IMG/VR virus record: IMGVR_UViG_3300028393_000001
Coordinates: 59,963-123,962 of that record
From: a virus
Length of the DNA stretch: 64,000 nucleotides
Reading direction: 5' to 3' (one strand)
A model generated the notes under the pieces. The model did not search any database. It worked only from the letters and a program-made list of their open reading frames with translations, and had not been told where the DNA came from. Each line of letters begins with the position of its first letter. Within the stretch, counting starts at the first letter, position 1. Shown in pieces: positions 2,897 to 59,794 of the stretch. Both the position numbers and the translations under genes were made by a program.

Positions 2897-3316
2897 ATGA
2901 AAAAATTTATTTCAATTGCCGTTATCTCTTTTGCTGGCGTTGTTAATGCCGGAGAAATTACAGCCTCCTACTTAACCGATAGCGGACGTGATGGATATGC
3001 CATTAGTACACAGGTCAAAGGCGTTACCCTTGGAGCCTCACACGTTGATCGTGTTTATGACCGCTTCTCAGTAGGTAAATCTTTTGATATTGCTAAAGTC
3101 GGACCACTACAACTAGCAGCAGGCGGAAGCGGAGTATATCAAAGTACTCTTGCTAAAAATGATAGTGGTTATGGCCTAGCAGCTCAGGTAACAGCAACTG
3201 CTGCGGTCAATAAAAACGTTGACGTAGTTGCTGGCGTACAGAAGTTCTGGGGACAGGACCGCGTGAGTGCTCAAAATGGTAACTCGGCTACTGTTGGAAT
3301 TAAAGTTAAGTTTTAA
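2897..3316 (+). CDS. small outer-membrane beta-barrel protein
   Basis: Start MKKFISIAV after AGGA; Sec signal ending VNA; alternating beta pattern; C-terminal VGIKVKF. Confidence 0.75.
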   Translation: MKKFISIAVISFAGVVNAGEITASYLTDSGRDGYAISTQVKGVTLGASHVDRVYDRFSVGKSFDIAKVGPLQLAAGGSGVYQSTLAKNDSGYGLAAQVTATAAVNKNVDVVAGVQKFWGQDRVSAQNGNSATVGIKVKF

Positions 3317-3319
3317 TTT

Positions 3320-3416
3320 AAATACACTACTTGCCACTTAATAAATATATGCGGAGACGTTCCGGACTGTGTCATTCCGCGGGTAACTGGGAGCACCCAG
3401 CATAGGTAGTGTGTTT
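3320..3416 (+). ncRNA. stem-bracketed structured RNA candidate
   Basis: AAATACACTACTT/AGGTAGTGTGTTT closing stem; internal GCGGA..TCCGC and CTGGG-AGCA-CCCAG helices. Confidence 0.5.
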
Positions 3417-3426
3417 TTTATTTTAT

Positions 3427-3715
3427 AGTTGTATGAAGTAGACAGAAAAGTGTCTTGGACGGGGGTGCGAATCCCCCCAGGTCCACCAGAAGTATATTCG
3501 ACCTCACACGCGGAGAGGTGAAATATAACAGAATATACTTCTGATGGGCCTGCATAGTTTCGACAGGGCAAAGAGTAGGAAAATGGACAACTCGGTAGGC
3601 GATGACCGTTAATCAAGCAAAACAAGTAAACGCAAACGACTCACAGTTCGCATTAGCAGCCTAAACACTGCTTAGGGTTTTGATAAGTTTTCCTCGTAAC
3701 AGAATAAACTTATCT
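3427..3715 (+). ncRNA. ssrA: circularly permuted two-piece tmRNA; tag ANDSQFALAA
   Basis: The acceptor 3' strand (T-arm, CAGGTCC-ACCA ending 3488) lies before the 5' strand (GGGCCTG..TTTCGAC from 3546) with G3:U70; tag ORF 3632-3664; outer ends approximate. Confidence 0.9.
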
Positions 3716-3722
3716 CAAATAC

Positions 3723-3798
3723 CGCAGAGTATGGAAGTGGTCATCCGTCTGGTCTCATAAGCCTGAAATCGTTGGTTCGAATCCAACCTCTGCATCCA
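3723..3798 (+). tRNA. tRNA-fMet(CAT), initiator-like
   Basis: C1:A72 mismatch, CT-CAT-AA loop, CCA end. Confidence 0.85.
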
Positions 3799-3816
3799 AT
3801 ACGAAAGGAAAATTGT

Positions 3817-4050
3817 ATGAAATTAAAATCTACTCCAGGTGCAATGGCAAATGCCAAGATACCTACATCCGTAAGCTACGGAGCAGATGCCCCCTCCTTA
3901 GATGCTGATATGGGTGTAGAGGATATTAGTCCTACAGGTACTGATATGGATGATATTCCACCAGGCAGTTTTGAGTTATTGACTCCAACAGTTAATAATA
4001 TTAAAATTACACACGAAGGTGATATGGGACGACTAAGTCCCCTAGAATAA
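3817..4050 (+). CDS. hypothetical protein
   Basis: ATG after AAGGA; the upstream start in the ORF track lies inside a tRNA. Confidence 0.65.
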   Translation: MKLKSTPGAMANAKIPTSVSYGADAPSLDADMGVEDISPTGTDMDDIPPGSFELLTPTVNNIKITHEGDMGRLSPLE

Positions 4051-4057
4051 AAGATGA

Positions 4058-4132
4058 GCGGGCATGGTGCTAGTGGTAACACATATCCTTGCCAAGGACA
4101 AGTTGCGAGTTCGATTCTCGCTGCCCGCTCCA
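4058..4132 (+). tRNA. tRNA-Gly(GCC)
   Basis: GCGGGCA/TGCCCGC acceptor, TCCA end. Confidence 0.92.
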
Positions 4133-4224
4133 TATATAAATATACTACTAAACCCGCTGAGTCAGGTTTAACTACTGGAGTTCTGAAAAGAAGGTGTCGT
4201 AAGAGTAGTATATTTATATATGGA
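4129..4224 (+). repeat. 21-bp perfect inverted repeat bracketing a 54-nt insert between tRNAs
   Basis: TCCATATATAAATATACTACT (4129-4149) / AGTAGTATATTTATATATGGA (4204-4224). Confidence 0.85.
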
Positions 4225-4313
4225 AGATAATGCAGCGGGGTTGGTCCTGCGACTGGCCTTGAAAACCAGGTTCTCTTAACAGGGATGGGGTTCGACTCCT
4301 CTGTCTTCCGCCA
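4222..4313 (+). tRNA. tRNA-Ser(TGA)
   Basis: GGAAGAT/GTCTTCC acceptor, CT-TGA-AA loop, long variable arm, GCCA. Confidence 0.9.
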
Positions 4314-4318
4314 ATATT

Positions 4319-4885
4319 ATGAAAAAAACAATATTATCACTATTTGATTACTCAGGTAATTGGCCTAGCCCTTATAAACGGGCAGGGTATGATGTGTATC
4401 AAGTTGACGTTAAACTAGGTATAGATATCTTAGAACTTCAACCCGAGGACATACCTGATAATGTCTATGGTATATTAGCTGCTCCTCCTTGTACAGATTT
4501 TGCAGGCTCAGGAGCACAGTACTGGAAAGCTAAAGACATAGACGGACGTACTGATAGTAGTCTAGCCCTAGTAGATAAAACATTAGAAATTATTTCTTGG
4601 TGTGACCCTAAATTTTGGGTGCTGGAAAATCCTGTAGGTAGACTAAGTAAACTTAGACCCAAACTAGGAGATCCCTGGTATTTTCAGCCTTGGCATTATG
4701 GTGATGCCTATACTAAGAAAACAGGGTTATGGGGTAATTTCAATAAAAGTTTAGTAAAACAGGAGGTAATTCCTGATCCTAATTCTTGGATAATGAAACT
4801 AGGTGGTAAATCGGAGAGAACAAAAGAATTACGCTCAATGACTCCTTTAGGATTTGCAGAGGCTTTCTTTAAAGCAAACCCATAA
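4319..4885 (+). CDS. short C5-cytosine methyltransferase (Dcm-like)
   Basis: ILSLFDYSG motif I variant, PPC catalytic motif, ENP motif VI, RSMTP..FA end. Confidence 0.8.
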   Translation: MKKTILSLFDYSGNWPSPYKRAGYDVYQVDVKLGIDILELQPEDIPDNVYGILAAPPCTDFAGSGAQYWKAKDIDGRTDSSLALVDKTLEIISWCDPKFWVLENPVGRLSKLRPKLGDPWYFQPWHYGDAYTKKTGLWGNFNKSLVKQEVIPDPNSWIMKLGGKSERTKELRSMTPLGFAEAFFKANP

Positions 4886-4893
4886 ATTTAGAT

Positions 4894-4922
4894 TTGAACT
4901 GTGAGTTAAAATTCTTTATAAT
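4894..4922 (+). promoter_or_regulatory. sigma70-type promoter
   Basis: TTGAAC-17-TATAAT; ATG 6 nt downstream. Confidence 0.7.
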
Positions 4923-4928
4923 ATCAGT

Positions 4929-5156
4929 ATGAAAAAGAAATTTAATATCCAATCTCTCTCGCCGCAAATGTCTACACCTAGAGTAACTCGCACGGATATT
5001 CCGAGCTTGTATACTCCTGGGGGTAACTGTACCCTAAAAGAAACACCTAAGTATACAGGCGACCAAATGATTGGTATTTCAATCATTCATAAGTCCTGCC
5101 TACAACCTATCTTTAGTCAACAAGAGGCTATTGATGCAGCAAGTATGCGACGTTAG
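4929..5156 (+). CDS. hypothetical protein
   Basis: ORF directly after promoter; KYTGD..IGI...HKS motif. Confidence 0.65.
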   Translation: MKKKFNIQSLSPQMSTPRVTRTDIPSLYTPGGNCTLKETPKYTGDQMIGISIIHKSCLQPIFSQQEAIDAASMRR

Positions 5157-5157
5157 T

Positions 5158-5439
5158 ATGGCTAAGTCGTTTGCAGAAATTAAAAAATCATTAGGCTTAC
5201 TAGACTTTATCCAGTTTGGTAAGTATCGTGGTTGTCGTGTAGACTCCATAGTTGCTATGGATGACGACTACCTTCGTTATATGCAAACACAAGGTATCAA
5301 GTTTGATGCTAGTGTAATGGATGCACTAACCAATAAGTTTTCAGCTGATTCTATAGAAGTAGGGTATGACCCTCGTGAAGTTCAAGAAGTAGATGAGCAT
5401 GGTTATGGCCCTATATATTTTGGCGACGTGCCTTGGTAA
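5158..5439 (+). CDS. FGKYxG-motif protein (exonuclease X C-terminal-like)
   Basis: IQFGKYRGCRVDSIVAMDDDYLRYM; ATG right after the previous stop. Confidence 0.65.
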   Translation: MAKSFAEIKKSLGLLDFIQFGKYRGCRVDSIVAMDDDYLRYMQTQGIKFDASVMDALTNKFSADSIEVGYDPREVQEVDEHGYGPIYFGDVPW

Positions 5440-5490
5440 ATTAATAATAAGGAGAGCTGTCATGACAAGTGACAAGAGTGACAAACTGCC

Positions 5491-5565
5491 GGGGGTATAA
5501 CTTAGCGGCTAAAGTAACTGGCTTTTAACCAGTAAATCAGGGTTCGATTCCCTGTGCCCCTACCA
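5491..5565 (+). tRNA. tRNA-Lys(TTT)
   Basis: ACTGG-CTTTTAA-CCAGT anticodon arm, ACCA. Confidence 0.92.
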
Positions 5566-5645
5566 TATAAAAATACACTGTCCTAGGCTGTGACCTAGTC
5601 CATCAGAAGTCCTCAGAGACAGAAGCAGTGTGTTTCTATATGGTA
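5561..5645 (+). repeat. 20-bp near-perfect inverted repeat bracketing a 45-nt insert between tRNAs
   Basis: TACCATATAAAAATACACTG / CAGTGTGTTTCTATATGGTA. Confidence 0.8.
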
Positions 5646-5716
5646 ATGTAGGACAATGGTAGTCCACCTCCTTCATACGGAGAATGCTAGTGGTTCGAGT
5701 CCACTCATTACCACCA
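5642..5716 (+). tRNA. tRNA-Met(CAT)
   Basis: GGTAATG/CATTACC acceptor, TT-CAT-AC loop, ACCA. Confidence 0.88.
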
Positions 5717-5722
5717 AGTTAT

Positions 5723-5795
5723 GTGTGAGAGCCAGATTAGTGATGGTGCTGATGTATTTCAGTGAAAGAGTGAGCGAACCCACTTCCACACACCA
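5723..5795 (+). ncRNA. degenerate tRNA-like element
   Basis: GTGTG/CACAC-ACCA acceptor, GCCA/TGGT D-arm, GCTGA/TCAGT arm with 6-nt loop, AGTG/CACT arm lacking TTC. Confidence 0.55.
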
Positions 5796-5798
5796 AGT

Positions 5799-6019
5799 TT
5801 TGTTAAAGTGTTAGCAAGAGAAATCACGCTGATTAGTATTCTTCGAAGGTACTAATCAGTAGAAAGTTGCGGGTTCGATTCCCGACTTATCGCCGTTTAC
5901 GGTGGAGGTATACAGGGGCGTATCAACTGGATGAATCCCAAGTAACGTACCGAGACCTTGCCGGCCTTGTATAATAAGGTGAATGGTTCCGATAATATGG
6001 GTGGAACTACTTTAACAAA
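5799..6019 (+). ncRNA. unknown ~220-nt multi-helix structured RNA
   Basis: Closing stem TTTGTTAAAGT/ACTTTAACAAA; internal CTGATTAGTA/TACTAATCAG, CGGG-TTCGATT-CCCG, TATACAGGG/CCTTGTATA and GTTCC/GGAAC helices. Confidence 0.65.
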
Positions 6020-6027
6020 TTAAATAC

Positions 6028-6101
6028 TGGGGGATAGTTAAACGGTATAACCGCGGATTTTGATTCCGCTATCCTAGGTTCGATTCCTAGTCCCTCTGCC
6101 A
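6028..6101 (+). tRNA. tRNA-Gln(TTG)
   Basis: GCGGA-TTTTGAT-TCCGC anticodon arm, GCCA. Confidence 0.9.
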
Positions 6102-6116
6102 CCTAAGTGTTTAGGC

Positions 6117-6190
6117 GTGGCCATGTTGTAACGGTTAGCAACAGAGATTGTGATTCTCTTAGTCTGGGTTCGATTCCCAGTGGTCACCCC
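6117..6190 (+). tRNA. tRNA-His(GTG)
   Basis: GTGGCCA/TGGTCAC acceptor, C73, TT-GTG-AT loop; no encoded G-1 and no full CCA. Confidence 0.88.
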
Positions 6191-6200
6191 TAAACACTTT

Positions 6201-6856: not shown

Positions 6857-6928
6857 TGCAATGCTCATTATGAGATTGCACCTGGGCATGTTGCCCAAAA
6901 GTTCTTGCTTATAAAAGGAGAAAATATG
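6857..6928 (+). promoter_or_regulatory. ROSE-like RNA thermometer
   Basis: Two upstream hairpins, then TTCTTGCT-TATAAA-AGGAGAA, which pairs the UUGCU motif with the SD of an sHsp gene. Confidence 0.65.
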
Positions 6929-7348
6929 ACAGAACTAACCGTGGGTCAAGTAAACTTTGGATCCAACCTCAATCGTGCTTTAATTGGTTTTGACCAACTA
7001 TTCAATAACTTAGAATATGTACAAACTACAAATTATCCACCGTACAACGTAATCAAATCTGATGAAGATAATTATATCATTGAAGTGGCTGTAGCTGGTT
7101 TCAAGAAACCGGAAATTAAAGTAGAAATTGACAATAATAAACTATCAGTAAAAGGTTCTAAAGAGAAAGAGGATACAAAAACGCAGTATCTTCACCATGC
7201 ACTTAGTGCTAGAAACTTTAATCATCAGTTTACTATTGCAGAAAATATGGTGATTAAGTCAGCCACTTTGGAAGATGGAATACTTCAAGTATTAATTAAA
7301 CGTATTGTTCCAGAATCCAAAAAAGTACGTACAATAGATATTCTATAA
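6926..7348 (+). CDS. small heat-shock protein Hsp20 (IbpA-like)
   Basis: IGFDQLF, NYPPYNVIK, IEVAVAGF, LEDGIL alpha-crystallin motifs; start after AGGAG. Confidence 0.95.
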   Translation: MTELTVGQVNFGSNLNRALIGFDQLFNNLEYVQTTNYPPYNVIKSDEDNYIIEVAVAGFKKPEIKVEIDNNKLSVKGSKEKEDTKTQYLHHALSARNFNHQFTIAENMVIKSATLEDGILQVLIKRIVPESKKVRTIDIL

Positions 7349-16470: not shown

Positions 16471-18752
16471 CAAAAATTTGCATTATAGATAAAGCCCCAA
16501 GTAGAAATAATTATAGTATCTACTTTAATTTTGATTTTGAACTATTTCACATGAGTCAAGTACCTATTACTAAACTCCTTAAGAAAGATGTGGACTTAGA
16601 TATTGACTTAGAGCCGTATGACTTTGTTATCCTAGTAGGGGCTGAAGCAGCAAAAGAATATGCTAAAGTTAGTTCTGTAACTAACTATGCCGGACAACTA
16701 ATGCATGATAAATTCATATGTATTAGCAACCCAGCGATGCTACACTTCAAGCCAGAAGGTAAGCCTGATTTTCAAAGATCAGTAGATCGTATTCATAAGT
16801 ACATTGAAGGCTCTATTAAGAATGCAAGTATTACTGGAGATTATTTGGGTATTGTAAATACTACCCAAGCATTAAAATTCTTACAAGAAGTTTTTGATAA
16901 TGCTGAAGGTTATGTAGCAATGGATACAGAAACAACAGCCTTATATCCTAGAGATGGATATGTGCTGGGATTGTCTATTAGCTATAAAGATAAGCATGGC
17001 GCATATATTAGCACTGAGTGTTTAGACGAAGAGTGTCTTGAAAAAGTACAGCAGATTGCTGATAAATATGAAATAGTTTTTCATAATATGAAGTTCGACA
17101 TTAAGATGATCGAATATCATTTAGGAATTAAATTCAATAGAGCACGAGTACATGACACAATGCTAATGCACTATGCATTAGACGAAAACGATAGTCACGG
17201 CTTAAAACCTTTGGCTCTTAAATATACTGAGTATGGTGATTATGATGCAGAATTAGATAGTTTTAAGAAGGAATACTGCTCTAGCAAGGGATTATTACTT
17301 GAAGATTTTACTTATGACCTAATTCCTTTTGATGTAATTGCAAAATATGCTGCAATTGATACAGCAGTAACTATTACTTTATTCCATAAATTCTGGCCTA
17401 ATGTTCAAAAGAATACTAAGCTATTATGGGTATATAAGAACATTTTAATACCTGGTACCCTATTCTTAATGGATATGGAAGAAGTAGGTATTCCAATTGA
17501 TCGTGAAAGAATGACTTCAGCCGAGGGTTTCTTAGACTTACAAATTGCAGAAGCAAAACAAGAAGTATATGCTTTTCAAGAAGTTAAAGACTTTGAAAAA
17601 GACGCAGGAATTATATTTAATCCAAACTCAGTACAACAACTTAGAAAAGTTTTGTTCGACTATGTTAAACTTACTCCCACCGGAAAGAAGACCGGCACCG
17701 GAGCTATTTCAACTGATGCCGAAGTGCTTGAAGAACTATCCGAAGAACACCCACTACCAGCAGCCATACTTAAAGTTAGACAGCTTGGTAAGATCAAGAA
17801 TACTTACATCAGTAAAATCCTACCAGAGTTAGACAAAGATGGCCGAATTCGTACAAATTTTAATCTTATTTTTACCACTAGTGGGCGTTTGTCTAGTAGT
17901 GGGAAATTTAATGCTCAACAGATTCCACGAGATAATTCAATCATCAAAGGATGTATTAAGGCACCTGAAGGTTACAAAATAGTATCACAAGACTTAACAA
18001 CAGCTGAAATGTACTATGCGGCCGTTCTTAGTACTGATAAGAATCTTCAACAAGTTTTTATATCAGGCGGCGACTTTCACAGTACTATTGCTAAAATGGT
18101 GTTTGATCTAGTTTGCGAGGTTGAAGATGTTAAGAACACTTTTGGTTCTATGCGTCAATCAGCAAAAGCAATTTCATTCGGAATCTTATATGGTTCTGGC
18201 CCTCAAAAAGTATCTGATACAGTATCAAAATCAACAGGTGAATACTATGGTATCGACAGAGCAAAACAAGATATTAAATCTTACTTTGAAAAATTCAATA
18301 AACTTAAAAAGTGGCTGGATAGCCGTAAAGAATTTATTCAAGCTAATGGTTACACTTATAGCTTTTTTGGCAGGAAGCGTCGTCTTATCAATGTGTTCTC
18401 CACAGATAAGGGAATTGCTGCCCACGAGGTACGTTCCGGAATCAATGCAGAAGTACAATCTTTAGCAAGTGATATGAACCTATTTGGCGCTATGGATACT
18501 GCTAATGAAATCAAAGCTAAAGGTATAGACGCTAAAATATTCATGTTAGTACATGACTCAATTGTAGCCTTAGTTAAAGACGAGTGTGTAGAAGAATATT
18601 GCGAAATATTGAAGAGAAATACTCAAAAAGATCGTGGTTGTTCTATACAAGGTTATCCAATTGGTGTAGATCAAGAAGTAGGACAGGATTATAGTTTTGG
18701 AAAATTTGATAAACAGTATCTCGTTGAAGGACATAGCTTATCCAGTATTTAA
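16467..18752 (+). CDS. family A DNA polymerase with 3'-5' exonuclease
   Basis: DTET, HNMKFD, YAAID exo motifs; SGRLSS, QDLTTAE, RQSAKAISFGILYG, VHDS. Confidence 0.96.
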   Translation: MTKICIIDKAPSRNNYSIYFNFDFELFHMSQVPITKLLKKDVDLDIDLEPYDFVILVGAEAAKEYAKVSSVTNYAGQLMHDKFICISNPAMLHFKPEGKPDFQRSVDRIHKYIEGSIKNASITGDYLGIVNTTQALKFLQEVFDNAEGYVAMDTETTALYPRDGYVLGLSISYKDKHGAYISTECLDEECLEKVQQIADKYEIVFHNMKFDIKMIEYHLGIKFNRARVHDTMLMHYALDENDSHGLKPLALKYTEYGDYDAELDSFKKEYCSSKGLLLEDFTYDLIPFDVIAKYAAIDTAVTITLFHKFWPNVQKNTKLLWVYKNILIPGTLFLMDMEEVGIPIDRERMTSAEGFLDLQIAEAKQEVYAFQEVKDFEKDAGIIFNPNSVQQLRKVLFDYVKLTPTGKKTGTGAISTDAEVLEELSEEHPLPAAILKVRQLGKIKNTYISKILPELDKDGRIRTNFNLIFTTSGRLSSSGKFNAQQIPRDNSIIKGCIKAPEGYKIVSQDLTTAEMYYAAVLSTDKNLQQVFISGGDFHSTIAKMVFDLVCEVEDVKNTFGSMRQSAKAISFGILYGSGPQKVSDTVSKSTGEYYGIDRAKQDIKSYFEKFNKLKKWLDSRKEFIQANGYTYSFFGRKRRLINVFSTDKGIAAHEVRSGINAEVQSLASDMNLFGAMDTANEIKAKGIDAKIFMLVHDSIVALVKDECVEEYCEILKRNTQKDRGCSIQGYPIGVDQEVGQDYSFGKFDKQYLVEGHSLSSI

Positions 18753-55629: not shown

Positions 55630-55678
55630 TGTGGCTCCTAAAAAGGTTTTACTTAACTATAGAGTTAAGTTTATAATT

Positions 55679-57343
55679 TTAATATATTCCGCCGTCAACT
55701 GCTTTAATGGTTACGGTACCTGCTGTAACTGTAAAATCTGTTGTAGCAAAAGATGCTAGACCCAATACTGAGGTAGTAGCCGTTGGAATAGCGTTAGCTG
55801 TAACAGCAGTAACTAGACCTTTTGCATTTACAGTAATTGCTGGTACACTAGTTGAAGTACCAAAACTACCTACATTACTATTAACAGTTGCTAGGGTAAG
55901 TGCTAAGCTTGTTGTTCCTGAGCCAGTAGCATCACCAGAGGCTGTAATTGTCTGGTTATCTGTTAGGTATGCTACTGTAGAGGCCGCAGTTACTAAACCT
56001 TTAGCATTAACAGTAACATTATTAAATGTACCTGTGTTACTATTAACTGTAGCTAGGGTAACTGTTGCAGATACATTTGCTGTACCATCTACTGCGGTTA
56101 GTGTAGCTGTAGCATCGCCTGTTAAGCTTAGGTTACGAGCTGTTTCCCACTTATTTGTAGAAGAGGCAACACCGGTTATTGTACCGACAATATTACCGTA
56201 GATTGAACCGGAAGTGCGAATATCTTTATTAAATGACCAGCTATTATCAGCCGAAACATAGAGTATGGTAGCAGGGGTTGTAGGACCAACAACTGTTAGA
56301 CCAGCACCGTTAGCAGCAGCAGCCGTGGTAGCGTCTTTAGCTAAGATAATATTTAGGTCAGCTACAGCTATTGCTGTTGAATTAATTGTTGTTGTAGTAC
56401 CCTGAACTGTTAAGTTACCTGTAATTGTAGCATTACCGCTTACACTAATATTAGTGCTCGTAATGTCATCACTTGTAAGGGTACCATTTACTGTTACATT
56501 ATTAAATGTTACGTTATCTGTTATGCCGACAGCTTGTCCGATTGCAAAGCTAACTTGATTATTTGTAACTGTAGTATTTACACCAGTTCCGCCAGCAAAA
56601 GTTAAAGTATCAGTACCAACAGCTACTGTATCAGTTCCTGTGGTGCCGGCAATTGAAAGACTGCTTGAGATTGCAGCAGTAGTTACTGAAGTTACTAAAC
56701 CTTTAGCATTTACAGTAACTACTGGAATTGCTGTTGTCGAACCAAATGTACCTACATTAGAGTTAACCGTAGCTAGAGTAAGTGCAAGAGCTGATCCACT
56801 GTTAGTGCCGGTGGCATCGCCACTTGCTGTAATACTAGTAAGATAACTTACATTAGAAGCTGCAGTTACTAAACCTTTACCATTTACTGTGACGTTATTG
56901 AAGGTACCTGTGTTACTATTAACTGTAGCAAGTGTTGCTACAGCAGTTACATCCCCAGTACCATCAATTGATGGAGATGTATATGTAACATCACCTGTTA
57001 AACTAAGGGTACGCGCTGTAACCCATTTAGTAGCAGAACTAGCAACACCTGTTAAATTGGCTGTAATTGTACCAGCTGCAAAATTACCACTACTATCACG
57101 CTTGACTAAGGTTGAAATAGTGTTTAAATTAGTAGCCGCTGTAACCATATCGGTAAAATATTTACCACCAATTACTACGTGATTTACAGCATTTCCACTA
57201 GTTTCAGTTCCGGTACCAATGTACAGCCTATCTCCACCATTTGAACCATTATCAACTAATGCGGAATACGCTAATTCACCTGCACCTAATGTGCTTGGAT
57301 TACCCGAGGTTTCTGATCTTTTGATCTTAATTGTTGACGCCAT
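55679..57343 (-). CDS. tail fibre-like protein
   Basis: IKIKRS....P..L..GELAY N-terminal motif; repeated LATVNSN.G.F..VTVN.KGLVT; DGG.Y end. Confidence 0.8.
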   Translation of the reverse strand: MASTIKIKRSETSGNPSTLGAGELAYSALVDNGSNGGDRLYIGTGTETSGNAVNHVVIGGKYFTDMVTAATNLNTISTLVKRDSSGNFAAGTITANLTGVASSATKWVTARTLSLTGDVTYTSPSIDGTGDVTAVATLATVNSNTGTFNNVTVNGKGLVTAASNVSYLTSITASGDATGTNSGSALALTLATVNSNVGTFGSTTAIPVVTVNAKGLVTSVTTAAISSSLSIAGTTGTDTVAVGTDTLTFAGGTGVNTTVTNNQVSFAIGQAVGITDNVTFNNVTVNGTLTSDDITSTNISVSGNATITGNLTVQGTTTTINSTAIAVADLNIILAKDATTAAAANGAGLTVVGPTTPATILYVSADNSWSFNKDIRTSGSIYGNIVGTITGVASSTNKWETARNLSLTGDATATLTAVDGTANVSATVTLATVNSNTGTFNNVTVNAKGLVTAASTVAYLTDNQTITASGDATGSGTTSLALTLATVNSNVGSFGTSTSVPAITVNAKGLVTAVTANAIPTATTSVLGLASFATTDFTVTAGTVTIKAVDGGIY

Positions 57344-58783: not shown

Positions 58784-59794
58784 TTAGAATGTTATTGACC
58801 AAGTACCTACAGTTTTCCATGCATATATTCTAAAATCAGTATCAGTATATTCTATAGGTGAGCCTGTGTAGGAAGCAGGTGCTGGGTAATCTTTTGGATA
58901 CTTTATAATGACAACGCCAGAACCACCAGCACCACCGTTTCTAGCATAAGAACCACCACCACCACCACCAGAGCTATTGGATGCGGCCCCCTGAGTACCG
59001 GCGCCTGCGCTGTATACCATTACACTTGTACTAGGGTAGGCAGCAGGTCCCTCATAATATTCTCCCTGGCCACCACCTCCAAGCCCTCCAATACCTTTAT
59101 AATTACTACCATAATAAATATAAGTGGCACTACCGCCACCACCACCACCAAAATAAGGATTACCATATCCACCAACATTCATCTGGCCAACTTTAAGTGT
59201 GTCGTTAGCTGTGCGGTCCAGCCAAGCAACGTAGGTACCGGCTCCACCTGCGCCACCTGCAGCGTTCGCTGTTCCAATACCACCTCCACCACCACCTCCA
59301 CCAGCACTACCACCTGTTGCAACAGATCCGCCATTTATACCAGTACCAGCTCCATAACCACCATTATTACCTTGACCAGAAACTCCAAGTCCGCGTCCCA
59401 AGTAGGAGCCAGAAGAGGCACCACCACCAGAGCCACCATTTGCACCACTTGTAGTGGTTGTAGCATTGCGCCCGGCTCCTCCACCTCCGCCAAATGCGGT
59501 AATTATTGAAAATACTGAATTATCGCCATTTGTACCAGTACCAGCTGTATAACCACCAGACCCGCCCGCGCCTACAATAACAGGATATTCAATACCAGAA
59601 TCAATAGCAAATGAGGTACCTTGAAGTACACCACCACCACCACCACCAGCGCCGGATGCTACTGTTGCTGTAGCAGCATAGTTAGTGCCACCTCCTCCAC
59701 CTCCTCCAGCAACTACTAGATAGTAAACACTAGGAGTTTTGTTTGAACTTGAACTAAGAGCAGTAATTATTGAAATTGATGAAAGTCTTGACAT
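58784..59794 (-). CDS. glycine-rich domain protein (fibre-associated)
   Basis: YLVVAGGGGGG...GGSGVVIIKYP signature. Confidence 0.8.
   Translation of the reverse strand: MSRLSSISIITALSSSSNKTPSVYYLVVAGGGGGGGTNYAATATVASGAGGGGGGVLQGTSFAIDSGIEYPVIVGAGGSGGYTAGTGTNGDNSVFSIITAFGGGGGAGRNATTTTSGANGGSGGGASSGSYLGRGLGVSGQGNNGGYGAGTGINGGSVATGGSAGGGGGGGGIGTANAAGGAGGAGTYVAWLDRTANDTLKVGQMNVGGYGNPYFGGGGGGSATYIYYGSNYKGIGGLGGGGQGEYYEGPAAYPSTSVMVYSAGAGTQGAASNSSGGGGGGSYARNGGAGGSGVVIIKYPKDYPAPASYTGSPIEYTDTDFRIYAWKTVGTWSITF

Follow-up and report, generated by a model that had tools for sequence, protein, structure and literature searches.

The tRNA genes of this lake phage are interspersed with hairpins of a family that lacks a catalogue entry and is present in many phage tRNA arrays, and whose closing helix is selected at the RNA level in the tRNA sense. 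Judged from sequence, these clamp hairpins most likely mark the places where a long tRNA transcript is cut. The preferred reading, held tentatively and at a little under even confidence, is that the stems are RNA clamp helices, probably cut by RNase III, in the polycistronic stable-RNA transcript of a T5-like phage. The window analysed is a stretch of 64,000 nucleotides from IMG/VR record IMGVR_UViG_3300028393_000001, and its relevant features, with the six inverted repeats termed E1 to E6, are the following:

3320..3416, + strand: E1 hairpin, closed by a 14-bp helix around a 69-nt interior that holds two small hairpins, directly upstream of the tmRNA acceptor piece
3427..3717, + strand: permuted (two-piece) tmRNA with tag ANDSQFALAA (Rfam, ARAGORN)
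3478..3552, + strand: E2, tmRNA intervening sequence (repeat search, fold, Rfam)
4058..4132, + strand: tRNA-Gly(GCC) (ARAGORN, Rfam), whose discriminator and CCA form the base of E3
4129..4224, + strand: E3 clamp hairpin, 21 perfect bp and a 54-nt loop, clamp-family member
4222..4316, + strand: probable class II tRNA-Ser(UGA) (manual cloverleaf reading), whose first GG closes E3
5491..5565, + strand: tRNA-Lys(UUU) (ARAGORN, Rfam), whose ACCA forms the base of E4
5561..5645, + strand: E4 clamp hairpin between tRNA-Lys and tRNA-Met, 43-nt loop (repeat search, fold)
5642..5716, + strand: tRNA-Met(CAU) (ARAGORN, Rfam), whose first GG(UA) closes E4
5717..5798, + strand: tRNA-like remnant between two copies of the direct repeat CCAAGTTWTGT (5714-5724 and 5791-5801)
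5799..6019, + strand: E5, multi-domain RNA of ~220 nt with an 11-bp closing helix
6105..6199, + strand: E6, leader-trailer helix (repeat search, fold) around tRNA-His at 6117-6190 (ARAGORN, Rfam)

The six inverted repeats proposed in the initial annotation are all real by repeat search, stem scan and folding. A repeat search of the window recovers five of them, namely E2 (arms 3478-3499/3531-3552, 22 nt, 91% complementary), E3 (4129-4149/4204-4224, 21 nt, 100%), E4 (5561-5580/5626-5645, 20 nt, 90%), E5 (5799-5809/6009-6019, 11 nt, 100%) and E6 (6105-6123/6181-6199, 19 nt, 89%); E1 is missing from that list and is found in the stem scan as 14 bp, G·U pairs included, that close the minimum-energy fold. 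Fold z-scores against 200 shuffles are -7.20 for E2, -5.56 for E6, -5.45 for E3 and -5.20 for E4, each with 0/200 shuffles as good, and -3.05 for E5 (1/200) and -2.40 for E1 (4/200). The stem scan counts 173 stems of at least 12 bp in the genome versus 77-112 in ten shuffles, and because chance often yields stems of 12-14 bp, length by itself lends no significance to E1 or E5. CCA...TGG helices of at least 15 bp number 44, versus 2-8 in five local shuffles, over 498,081 bases made up of the genome's own tRNA region and 46 related loci. The pairing of an upstream CCA with a downstream TGG, claimed for three cases, is present in E2, E3 and E4, and the enclosed elements are also as described: the tmRNA segment in E2, tRNA-His in E6, and loops of 69, 54, 43 and 197 nt in E1, E3, E4 and E5. 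Approximately two turns of double-stranded RNA are formed by E3 (21 bp), E2 (8+13 bp), E4 (9+11 bp) and E6 (11+7 bp), while E1 (14 bp) and E5 (11 bp) are shorter than the approximately two-turn helix length of an RNase III substrate. Similar stems lie upstream of the window at genome positions 55632-55775, 56076-56224, 56379-56474 and 59470-59558 (stem scan).

The six repeats are not one family: E3 and E4 are clear members, E1 is decayed, and E2, E5 and E6 are separate. Related arms had been suggested for most of them, and this kinship is strong for E3 and E4, weak for E1 and E2 and absent for E5 and E6 under covariance model R1, which was built from 74 elements, all from other phages, among the matches listed. 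E3 scores 50.9 bits (E 1.8e-9) and E4 51.2 bits (E 1.5e-9), and the upstream stem at genome 56379-56474 scores 34 bits; E5 and E6 give no match to R1 at E 10. The proposed modular cassette survives similarly in part, in the common clamp and exchangeable interiors of E3 and E4, but does not extend to all six, E2, E5 and E6 being unlike. R1 finds 15 places in 11 of 46 related loci. The two-arm pattern occurs in at least 117 IMG/VR stretches versus 3 in 185,579 prokaryote (GTDB) genomes, all three on MAG contigs of 1.5-8.4 kb; it fixes 24 of the 34 arm positions, so that conservation at those positions is circular. Of the 119 elements among the matches listed, 82 have their start precisely at the CCA of a tRNA called by ARAGORN, and 33 end where a called tRNA begins. 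By model score and distribution, E3 and E4 are thereby placed in a large, uncatalogued, phage-specific hairpin family common in phage tRNA arrays. Rfam 15 yields nothing over E1, E3, E4 or E5 at E 5 and no match to the hairpins of 15 other loci at E 1, and the clamp hairpins have neither an Rfam 15 family nor a paper found in literature searches. The earlier remark that no description as a system was known thus holds for Rfam 15 and the literature searched, yet stable RNAs of T5 are annotated in NC_005859.

The arms of the family are AU-rich and the loops have approximately 50% G+C, a contrast that counts against the preferred reading; within the window there is no enrichment of the arm words AATACACT (7 versus 6.2 expected) or AGTGTGTTT (22 versus 32 expected). 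The E4 helix, of 9+11 bp, includes one U·G wobble and, at arm position 8, an A·C mismatch, and among the matches listed its arms recur with the same flanking tRNAs in many IMG/VR contigs. The tRNA-Ser(UGA) candidate that closes E3 is not called by ARAGORN and scores 36.9 bits with the Rfam tRNA-Sec model, below the gathering score; in 7 other contigs, hairpins of the family are followed by a near-identical RNA, and the candidate is also matched in loci L028 and L004. A near-relative contig covering 4057-4314 carries 5 differences, and all 4 among those listed fall in the E3 loop.

Selection on the clamp helix acts at the RNA level and in the tRNA sense. Among the matches listed, 96.3% of arm cells are paired in 74 unique elements, and the free or degenerate arm positions covary, with both-side changes in 54 cells versus a shuffled mean of 17.0 and 0/500 shuffles as high. 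At arm position 7 the pairs in these 74 are AU 47, UA 17, GC 4, GU 4 and other 2. Outside the mismatch position 8, which was left out of the count, G·U pairs number 36 versus a single A·C when read in the tRNA sense, again among the matches listed. Compared pairwise within the same scope, over 35 distinct tRNA-Lys sequences upstream of the hairpins, the tRNAs have a mean identity of 0.71, the free arm positions one of 0.78 and the loops one of 0.48.

E1 scores 9.8 bits with R1 (E 5) and is best described, from its position and interior, as a decayed clamp-family member at a conserved pre-tmRNA site. The same position in five relatives (L013, L023, L025, L014 and L006) is occupied by full R1 members of 37.5-45.3 bits on the sense strand, and the start of the E1 interior matches L014 by 96% over 25 nt. 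Since its upstream neighbour is an ORF and not a tRNA, E1 has no CCA/UGG base. A near-relative DNA contig shows 0 differences in 3320-3485 versus 6 in the preceding 117 nt of ORF sequence. The adjoining tmRNA matches RF04321 at 3427-3664 (136.8 bits, gathering score 47) and RF01850 at 3374-3717 (116.9 bits, gathering score 84), and E2, which lies between the acceptor piece's CCA and the coding piece's 5' G, is the intervening sequence already known from permuted tmRNAs. In it, an 8-bp acceptor stem is followed by a single C·A mismatch and then by a 13-bp helix spanning CCA/UG, and E2 is the only one of the repeats flanked by tmRNA that passes the Rfam gathering scores. The suggestion that the stems explain how the tmRNA became permuted finds no support: E2 reaches a non-significant 15.4 bits (E 0.26) with R1, and none of the tmRNA intervening helices of relatives reaches E 0.01.

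E6 is a separate, covarying leader-trailer helix, distinct from the clamp family. Beyond a C·C mismatch of -1 with 73, the acceptor stem runs on into its 11-bp helix, AGG of the leader pairs with CCU at 74-76, and the TTAGG-N-[tRNA-His]-C-CCTAA architecture recurs with covarying distal arms in 9 other contigs. Close by, a near-relative contig carries a joint 4313->6203 at a tRNA border. The 5' half of E5, formed by a long hairpin and a T-arm-like hairpin, appears to resemble the stable RNAIII of T5 in sequence: the long hairpin shares with it a 13-nt identical strand, present in no other locus compared, and approximately 50 nt of similar sequence around this strand. The 3' half is replaced in relatives (joint 5884->6010 with 114 letters between, in two DNA runs), and blastn of E5 against the phage collection found nothing. 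The remnant upstream of E5 receives no ARAGORN or Rfam call, folds at z -0.94 and -1.25, and is absent from near relatives, whose contigs have joints 5724->5824 and 5715->6022.

In the preferred reading, a clamp would pair the 3' trailer of one module, from its CCA onwards, with the next module's leader and its two initial G's. The helix would be the selected part, with E3, E4 and the decayed E1 sharing conserved AU-rich arms around interchangeable interiors of 30-60 nt. A double-strand-specific RNase of the host, RNase III, would cut the 18-22-bp helix a few nucleotides in from its CCA/UGG base, the two cuts being offset by 2 nt, after which exonucleases and RNase P would complete the neighbouring tRNA ends and the interior would be released as a small hairpin RNA, mostly disposable filler and sometimes a structured RNA. 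E2 may follow the same principle in its known tmRNA form, E6 may do so for a single tRNA-His, and E5 could be an RNAIII-like RNA with its own closing stem. The enzyme is suggested by analogy, as the annotated ends of T5 RNAIII (NC_005859) lie inside its helix and leave 2-nt 3' overhangs on both products, with a similar stagger in RNA2H, which points to RNase III; with helices of 18-22 bp, the RNase III-type cut put forward initially is plausible. The phage encodes no RNase III gene, so the host enzyme would act. Most tRNAs in these arrays lie 0-10 nt apart without a hairpin (2, 7 and 0 nt between Val, Phe, Cys and Asp, for example), and a clamp is therefore not needed for ordinary tRNA separation. 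The sequence needs of RNase III are loose, and the strong conservation of the arm sequences is left unexplained by cleavage with this enzyme.

A possible though less probable explanation is that the hairpins are passive folding insulators, which sequester the spacer so that the tRNAs fold alone and are removed by RNase P (at G+1) and by RNase E or 3' exonucleases (after CCA), with no role for RNase III. The helix ends exactly at both tRNA-processing cut sites, as this would predict, and G+1 is preceded by an AU-rich leader (...AUAU), U at position -1 and A at position -4 being suited to bacterial RNase P; however, pairing of the CCA and the leader should hinder RNase P. Insulators would also not need conserved arms across tRNA-Lys genes only 71% alike, and most neighbouring tRNAs in the same arrays manage without such a spacer. 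Further points in favour are that the 3' end of T5 RNAIII coincides with the annotated 5' end of tRNA-His, and thus could be made by RNase P, and that permuted tmRNA transcripts are, according to PMC11915505, 'cleaved by tRNA processing enzymes'.

It is rather unlikely that the clamp serves as an expression scaffold that releases and stabilises diverse interior RNAs acting alone, for example as regulators or decoys. The same arms do carry 38-42 unrelated loop clusters among 74 unique elements (among the matches listed), but within this scope the loops, taken together, are no more stably folded than shuffles (mean z -0.43, 1/38 below -2) and have no common motif. The E3 loop evolves roughly as fast as coding DNA in its vicinity (4 differences in 54 nt versus 119 in 1325, among the differences listed for a near relative), no loop has a complementary target in the phage genome (best matches 11-12 nt, E 0.26 or worse), and no Rfam family matches any loop checked. 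Most of the loops have the look of fast-evolving filler and not of conserved cargo. At least one interior type elsewhere departs from this: it recurs behind 5 different tRNAs, its loop-loop helix covaries (AU 4 / GC 4 at one pair), it has nothing meaningful in Rfam at E 10, and this covariation identifies it as a conserved structured kissing-loop RNA. Together with the E1 interior, unchanged in the near relative, it shows that 'filler' is not general, and both favour a scaffold, as do T5 RNAIII, RNAIV and RNA2H, annotated stable RNAs closed by extended stems. RNA library X19, seen like the DNA runs as assembled contigs with their depth, holds E1 and E3 at high depth, a hint of abundance that also favours the preferred reading: a contig identical to 3292-3440, all of E1, at 17,446, and contigs over the E3 loop at 23,468-48,351 versus 193-817 for five ORF contigs. 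A broader form of the idea, equally doubtful, is that the clamp is a natural tRNA-punctuated scaffold in many phage lineages, whose AU-rich helix with its A·C mismatch would release swappable 30-60-nt RNAs, some of kissing-loop type and serving as regulators or anti-defence decoys, in cassettes that move between phages and tRNA junctions.

Improbable is a DNA-level origin, with the hairpins being miniature inverted-repeat mobile elements or tRNA-shuffling recombination sites and their RNA folding incidental. Conserved terminal inverted repeats with variable interiors, phage specificity, the same hairpin type behind different tRNAs, and tRNA borders that are polymorphic in near relatives by presence/absence or by replacement (4313->6203, 5715->6022, 5884->6010) would fit such modules, but the G·U excess in the tRNA sense is unlike a DNA-level or strand-neutral element, 82 of the 119 elements listed abut the tRNA CCA exactly, and no transposase is associated. 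The copies in this genome differ in arms and interiors and so give no sign of recent transposition, and the CCA/TGG ends, being inverted, do not form a direct target duplication. A MITE or DNA transposon was rejected on its inverted CCA/TGG ends, unlike copies, tRNA-CCA sites and strand-biased wobble. Chance palindromes in AT-rich spacers are hardly credible, since the frequency of 12-14-bp stems and the lack of arm-word enrichment stand against z-scores of -5.2 to -7.2 for E2, E3, E4 and E6, 44 clamp helices versus 2-8 in shuffles, covariation in clamp and E6-type arms and R1 matches at E 1e-9, which refute chance for E2, E3, E4 and E6 and leave it only the 11-bp stem of E5.

Among known systems, the species 1 and 2 RNAs of T4 (rnaC, rnaD) are likewise small stable RNAs, function unknown, at the end of a phage tRNA cluster, but folded with 10-nt flanks they show no CCA...UGG clamp and no long terminal stem. 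RNase III processing helices include the leader-trailer stems of rRNA operons and the early-mRNA sites of phage T7. Like the clamps, they form approximately 20 bp of double-stranded RNA from sequences flanking a stable RNA, with an internal mismatch that separates a lower from an upper stem, and E6 brackets a whole tRNA as the rRNA stems bracket 16S and 23S. In contrast, the clamp arms are much more conserved in sequence than RNase III needs, their context is tRNA arrays, and they are known from sequence alone. The intervening sequence of permuted tmRNA (RF04321, RF01850) resembles a clamp in that a helix connects a CCA end with the 5' G that follows and is lost in the course of maturation, but there both flanks are one molecule and stay paired, whereas those of E3 and E4 are two different tRNAs. 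In T5, rnaI, rnaIII, rnaIV and rna2H of the tRNA region are annotated as 'stable RNA with unknown functions' (NC_005859). T5 scores 13.1 bits or less with R1, no match, so that its arms and the clamp arms are not of the same sequence family, and its interiors of 100-170 nt contrast with the 30-60 nt of E3 and E4. Both phages have a T5-like genome (124 kb, terminal repeats, split NAD ligase, DnaB, primase, PolA) with small non-tRNA RNAs interleaved with tRNAs, and the closing stems of T5 RNAIV and RNA2H extend past the annotated ends. T5 RNAIII has RNAI on one side and tRNA-His on the other, and its 20-bp helix, which pairs GCCA with TGGC, brings the CCA terminus of RNAI together with the TGG that opens tRNA-His, the same CCA…UGG clamp.

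All six long inverted repeats that the initial annotation had placed in the tRNA cluster are present where it put them (E1 to E6, listed below). The stems of E2, E3, E4 and E6 comprise 19-22 bp and fold with z values of -5.2 to -7.2, a stability that none of 200 shuffles matched. By stem length alone, E1 (14 bp, z -2.4) and E5 (11 bp, z -3.05) do not stand out. Stems of at least 12 bp number 173 in the whole genome, versus 77-112 in shuffles. The proposed pairing of the upstream RNA's CCA with the UGG at the beginning of the downstream RNA is found in E2, E3 and E4, and an inter-tRNA helix of this type is here termed a clamp hairpin. The further proposal that the six repeats form one family holds in part. 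R1, a covariance model of the clamp family, was seeded with 74 unique elements that adjoin tRNAs in other phages. An unfiltered search with R1 over the window, the 9 kb upstream of it and the tRNA region of T5 places E3 and E4 in the family (E about 1e-9) and leaves E2, E5 and E6 outside.

Inverted repeats of the cluster and further regions scored with R1
3320-3416: E1, 9.8 bits, E 5
3478-3552: E2, 15.4 bits, E 0.26
4129-4224: E3, 50.9 bits, E 1.8e-9
5561-5645: E4, 51.2 bits, E 1.5e-9
5799-6019: E5, no match
6105-6199: E6, no match
Genome 56379-56474: 34 bits, E 1.3e-5
T5 tRNA region: at most 13.1 bits

E2 is a known feature, the permuted tmRNA's intervening sequence. R1 has 15 hits at E ≤0.01 in 46 related loci, spread over 11 of them, and in L013, L023, L025, L014 and L006 these include a hairpin directly upstream of the tmRNA. 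E1 occupies this same pre-tmRNA site, contains the arm core and has 25 nt of its interior in common with L014, while the CCA/UGG base is missing because an ORF precedes the element. We read E1 as a decayed member of the clamp family.

The virus record extends over 123,962 bp with direct terminal repeats, the window covering bases 59,963-123,962 of it, and encodes T5-like replication proteins (a split NAD-dependent ligase, a DnaB-like helicase, a primase and a PolA-type polymerase). ARAGORN identifies 20 genes within the first 9 kb of the window, including the permuted tmRNA, and Rfam agrees on the tmRNA and most tRNAs of the cluster, which reaches upstream of the window to approximately genome position 55,300. 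Other features of the cluster are as follows.

2500-2571: tRNA, Rfam 48.6 bits, missed by ARAGORN
4222-4316: class II tRNA downstream of E3, missed by ARAGORN, sub-threshold match to the Rfam tRNA-Sec model (36.9 bits)
4319-4885: 188-aa methylase-like protein, weak match to part of the C5-cytosine methylase fold (PF00145, 23.3 bits)
5717-5798: tRNA-like remnant of 82 nt before E5, between direct repeats CCAAGTTWTGT
6117-6190: tRNA-His of a second class, locked in a leader-trailer helix
6776-6850: tRNA-Asp(GUC) called by ARAGORN, with the Rfam tRNA model not reaching E 5
6926-7348: small heat-shock protein gene (Hsp20), E 4.6e-20, within the tRNA cluster

The RNA at 4222-4316 is a putative tRNA-Ser(UGA) with a C31·A39 mismatch, an identity that derives from a cloverleaf reading of the sequence together with the sub-threshold Rfam score and conservation. 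The cloverleaf is absent from its minimum free energy fold. In 7 further contigs a nearly identical RNA lies behind a clamp hairpin, and Pseudomonas phage PHB09 contains an unannotated 84% match. The ATG of the adjacent methylase-like gene lies 3 nt past the CCA of a tRNA, and the protein is kept in 44 IMG/VR contigs, within tRNA clusters. The T-loop of tRNA-Asp(GUC) reads GATCGTTA, the usual type being TTCGAAT, and tRNA-Asp(GUC) with this odd T-loop also occurs in relatives, such as L227.

The methylase-like gene was used to gather 44 IMG/VR relatives (63-82% protein identity), in which the architecture of E1-E5 is conserved and the interiors, compared by blastn, are not. E2, E3, E5 and the tRNA-like remnant had no blastn match in the 44 loci, and the matches of E1 and E4 extended over merely 22-25 nt; thus relatives whose neighbouring methylase is 63-82% identical have no sequence-level orthologues of the interiors. 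Helices of at least 15 bp joining CCA to TGG number 44 in 498,081 bases, made up of the tRNA region of this genome and 46 related loci, versus 2-8 in five local shuffles, and many of them come after a called tRNA. A loose arm consensus is common to these helices and to the tmRNA intervening helices of the relatives, and a two-arm IUPAC pattern was derived from the arms. This pattern matches at least 117 stretches in IMG/VR and, in 185,579 prokaryote genomes, 3 stretches, all on MAG contigs of 1.5-8.4 kb. Among the matches listed, the CCA of an ARAGORN tRNA is the exact starting point of 82 of 119 elements (Lys-UUU 42, Gln 14 and Glu 10 being the upstream types), and 33 of 119 end where a called tRNA begins. 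An upstream tRNA precedes 71 unique elements, of which 26 are followed immediately by a tRNA and 21 more by one within 120 nt. Behind several of these elements lies the uncalled tRNA-Ser(UGA)-like RNA that also follows E3. The carrier contigs among these matches measure about 4-364 kb and contain as many as 38 tRNAs, and their 35 distinct upstream tRNA-Lys sequences have a mean identity of 71% (minimum 50%), so the clamp element spans diverse phages.

Counts of the arm words within the window are at chance level, so they do not form a genome-wide motif, and matches to a regular expression for both arm words are confined to this genome and L039. A one-arm pattern returned 109 stretches of IMG/VR that were rejected as nearly all chance matches in AT-rich viruses, the partner arm being present in L063 and L114 only. 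Comparison by blastn with a set of cultured phages from which close relatives may be missing gave tRNA-sized matches only, an R1 scan of PHB09, Ralstonia phage RSP15 and T4 returned nothing significant, and the first 12 kb of phage N4 contain no annotated tRNA. RSP15, a cultured phage of a betaproteobacterium, displays a 20-bp CCA...UGG hairpin right after tRNA-Phe (L278 6749-6863, fold z -5.11) with arms unlike those of the R1 family (15.2 bits), and is a possible laboratory system for clamp hairpins.

Because the two-arm pattern fixes 24 of the 34 arm positions, evidence of selection can come only from those that it leaves free or degenerate. The expectation that conserved arms would covary in other phages was borne out at these pattern-free positions, where the pairs covary in the 74 unique elements among the matches listed. 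At arm position 7 of these matches, AU occurs 47 times, UA 17, GC 4, GU 4 and other combinations 2, and positions 11, 12 and 14 alternate among AU, GC and GU. Changes on both sides of a pair fill 54 cells, where shuffles average 17.0 and none of 500 reaches the observed count; arm pairing is lost on sliding the partner arm. Outside position 8, G·U outnumbers A·C by 36 to 1 in the tRNA sense among the matches listed. A palindrome acting at the DNA level is disfavoured by this excess of G·U and by the covariation, which fit an RNA structure on the transcribed strand. Position 8 itself is unpaired in 44 of the 74 elements among the matches listed, mostly as A·C (40/74), a mismatch that E4 also carries. 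The helix family and RNA-level selection on the clamp helix are solid conclusions.

The proposal that each loop encloses structured cargo looks wrong for most of them and holds for some. The 74 unique elements among the matches listed fall into 42 loop clusters (38 under a looser rule); the loops have no common motif, approximately 50% G+C and folds no better than shuffles (mean z -0.43), with z below -2 in 1 of 38 loops. A near-relative DNA contig over tRNA-Gly, E3 and tRNA-Ser shows 5 differences, of which the 4 listed all lie in the 54-nt loop; 119 of 1325 positions differ in coding DNA nearby. E1 and the tmRNA start are unchanged in a contig that differs at 6 positions over the final 117 nt of the ORF before them. 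Judged by loop variability and folding, most interiors seem to vary freely, but some are genuine structured RNAs. One loop type, present in 8 elements behind 5 different tRNAs (L180, L188, L202, L239, L246, L248, L225 and L181), combines conserved hairpins and a covarying loop-loop helix (AU 4, GC 4) with the conserved motifs GGGAGA and UGAAG, and matches no Rfam family, including those of small self-cleaving ribozymes. The loops have no antisense targets beyond chance in the phage genome, and a role of the interiors is putative. A GOLLD RNA (L159 70-535, 208 bits) and a group I intron (L181 4941-5132, 60.5 bits) adjoin clamp hairpins and tRNAs in contigs of other phages. In L168, L159, L186, L193, L196 and L242 clamp hairpins are in tandem or flank 80-100-nt RNAs with a GG start, a CCA end and no tRNA call, and some interiors contain T-arm-like fragments, as if from decayed tRNAs.

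E6 encloses a tRNA-His of a distinct class. Leader-trailer helices of at least 11 bp occur in 10 of the 2013 tRNAs of the loci, versus 1.65 expected with permuted trailers, and 7 of 58 tRNA-His have one of at least 8 bp. Most tRNA-His in these arrays have G-1 and CCA encoded. The second class (6117-6190 here, and L114, L161, L190, L236, L241, L243, L251 and L026) is preceded by TTAGG-N and followed by C-CCTAA, with CCU encoded where CCA is expected and U, C or G at position -1, G-1 not being encoded. Ten such tRNA-His were picked for having the helix, which makes their percentage paired circular; their distal arms differ in sequence and all pair, with changes on both sides in 10 of 18 pairs. 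No Thg1 gene was found in the phage genome.

The remnant preceding E5 is absent from near-relative contigs, which marks it as a recent duplication or insertion. The 5' half of E5 has a long hairpin whose 5' strand is identical over 13 nt (5834-5846) to rnaIII of T5 (NC_005859); contigs from two DNA runs have 114 other letters in place of the 3' half. The 13-nt run occurs in none of the other loci compared, and the alignment around it is similar. This hints at conservation of RNAIII-like RNAs across very distant T5-like phages.

The T5 record annotates stable RNAs among the tRNAs. Folded with 8-nt flanks, RNAIII is enclosed by a 20-bp helix in which GCCA of the RNAI end is paired with TGGC of the tRNA-His start. 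The annotated 5' and 3' ends of RNAIII lie inside this helix, with an offset that leaves 2-nt 3' overhangs on both products; RNA2H has the same offset and RNAIV roughly so. Staggered cuts with 2-nt 3' overhangs are the geometry of RNase III, by which the RNAIII ends, as annotated, may have been produced. For the 3' end, RNase P is an equally plausible source. Under RNase III cleavage, transfer of the T5 geometry to E4 would position the 5'-arm cut next to the A·C mismatch. No RNase III gene was found in the phage genome, so the enzyme that we infer to act on the clamp helix would be that of the host.

In X19, an RNA library available as assembled contigs, a contig identical to 3292-3440 has a depth of 17,446 and contigs over the E3 loop reach 23,468-48,351, versus 193-817 for ORF contigs. 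This suggests that the E1 and E3-loop stretches belong to abundant RNA, a hint only, as contigs show no ends. Four runs were compared, all as contigs, in which uncovered parts carry no meaning. A contig joint 5566->5626 (side 20), seen in one run, was set aside as too weak.

Annotations of phage tRNA clusters usually show tRNAs with empty spacers between them. Some of these spacers are a conserved, phage-specific RNA element absent from catalogues and present in more than 100 environmental phage contigs, the smallest being fragments of about 4 kb and the largest 364 kb. No Rfam 15 family covers the clamp hairpins, and a literature search that included the arm sequences found no description of them, older T5 work being mostly beyond its reach. 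A model like R1 would improve phage genome annotation. Should RNase III cleave the helix, tRNA arrays would mature by a hitherto unrecognised route, one open to direct test in T5 and E. coli. Functional interiors would make the element a natural small-RNA expression scaffold, akin to engineered tRNA-guide arrays. Among the closest known items are T5 RNAIII, which has the same clamp as E3 and E4 with other arms, and the tmRNA intervening sequence, to which E2 corresponds exactly. RNase III leader-trailer helices are also close, as are the T4 species 1 and 2 RNAs (rnaC, rnaD), which however lack the clamp. The clamp element links T5 stable RNAs of unknown function, the intervening sequence of two-piece tmRNA, tRNA-His leader-trailer helices and inter-tRNA hairpins, four subjects handled separately until now.
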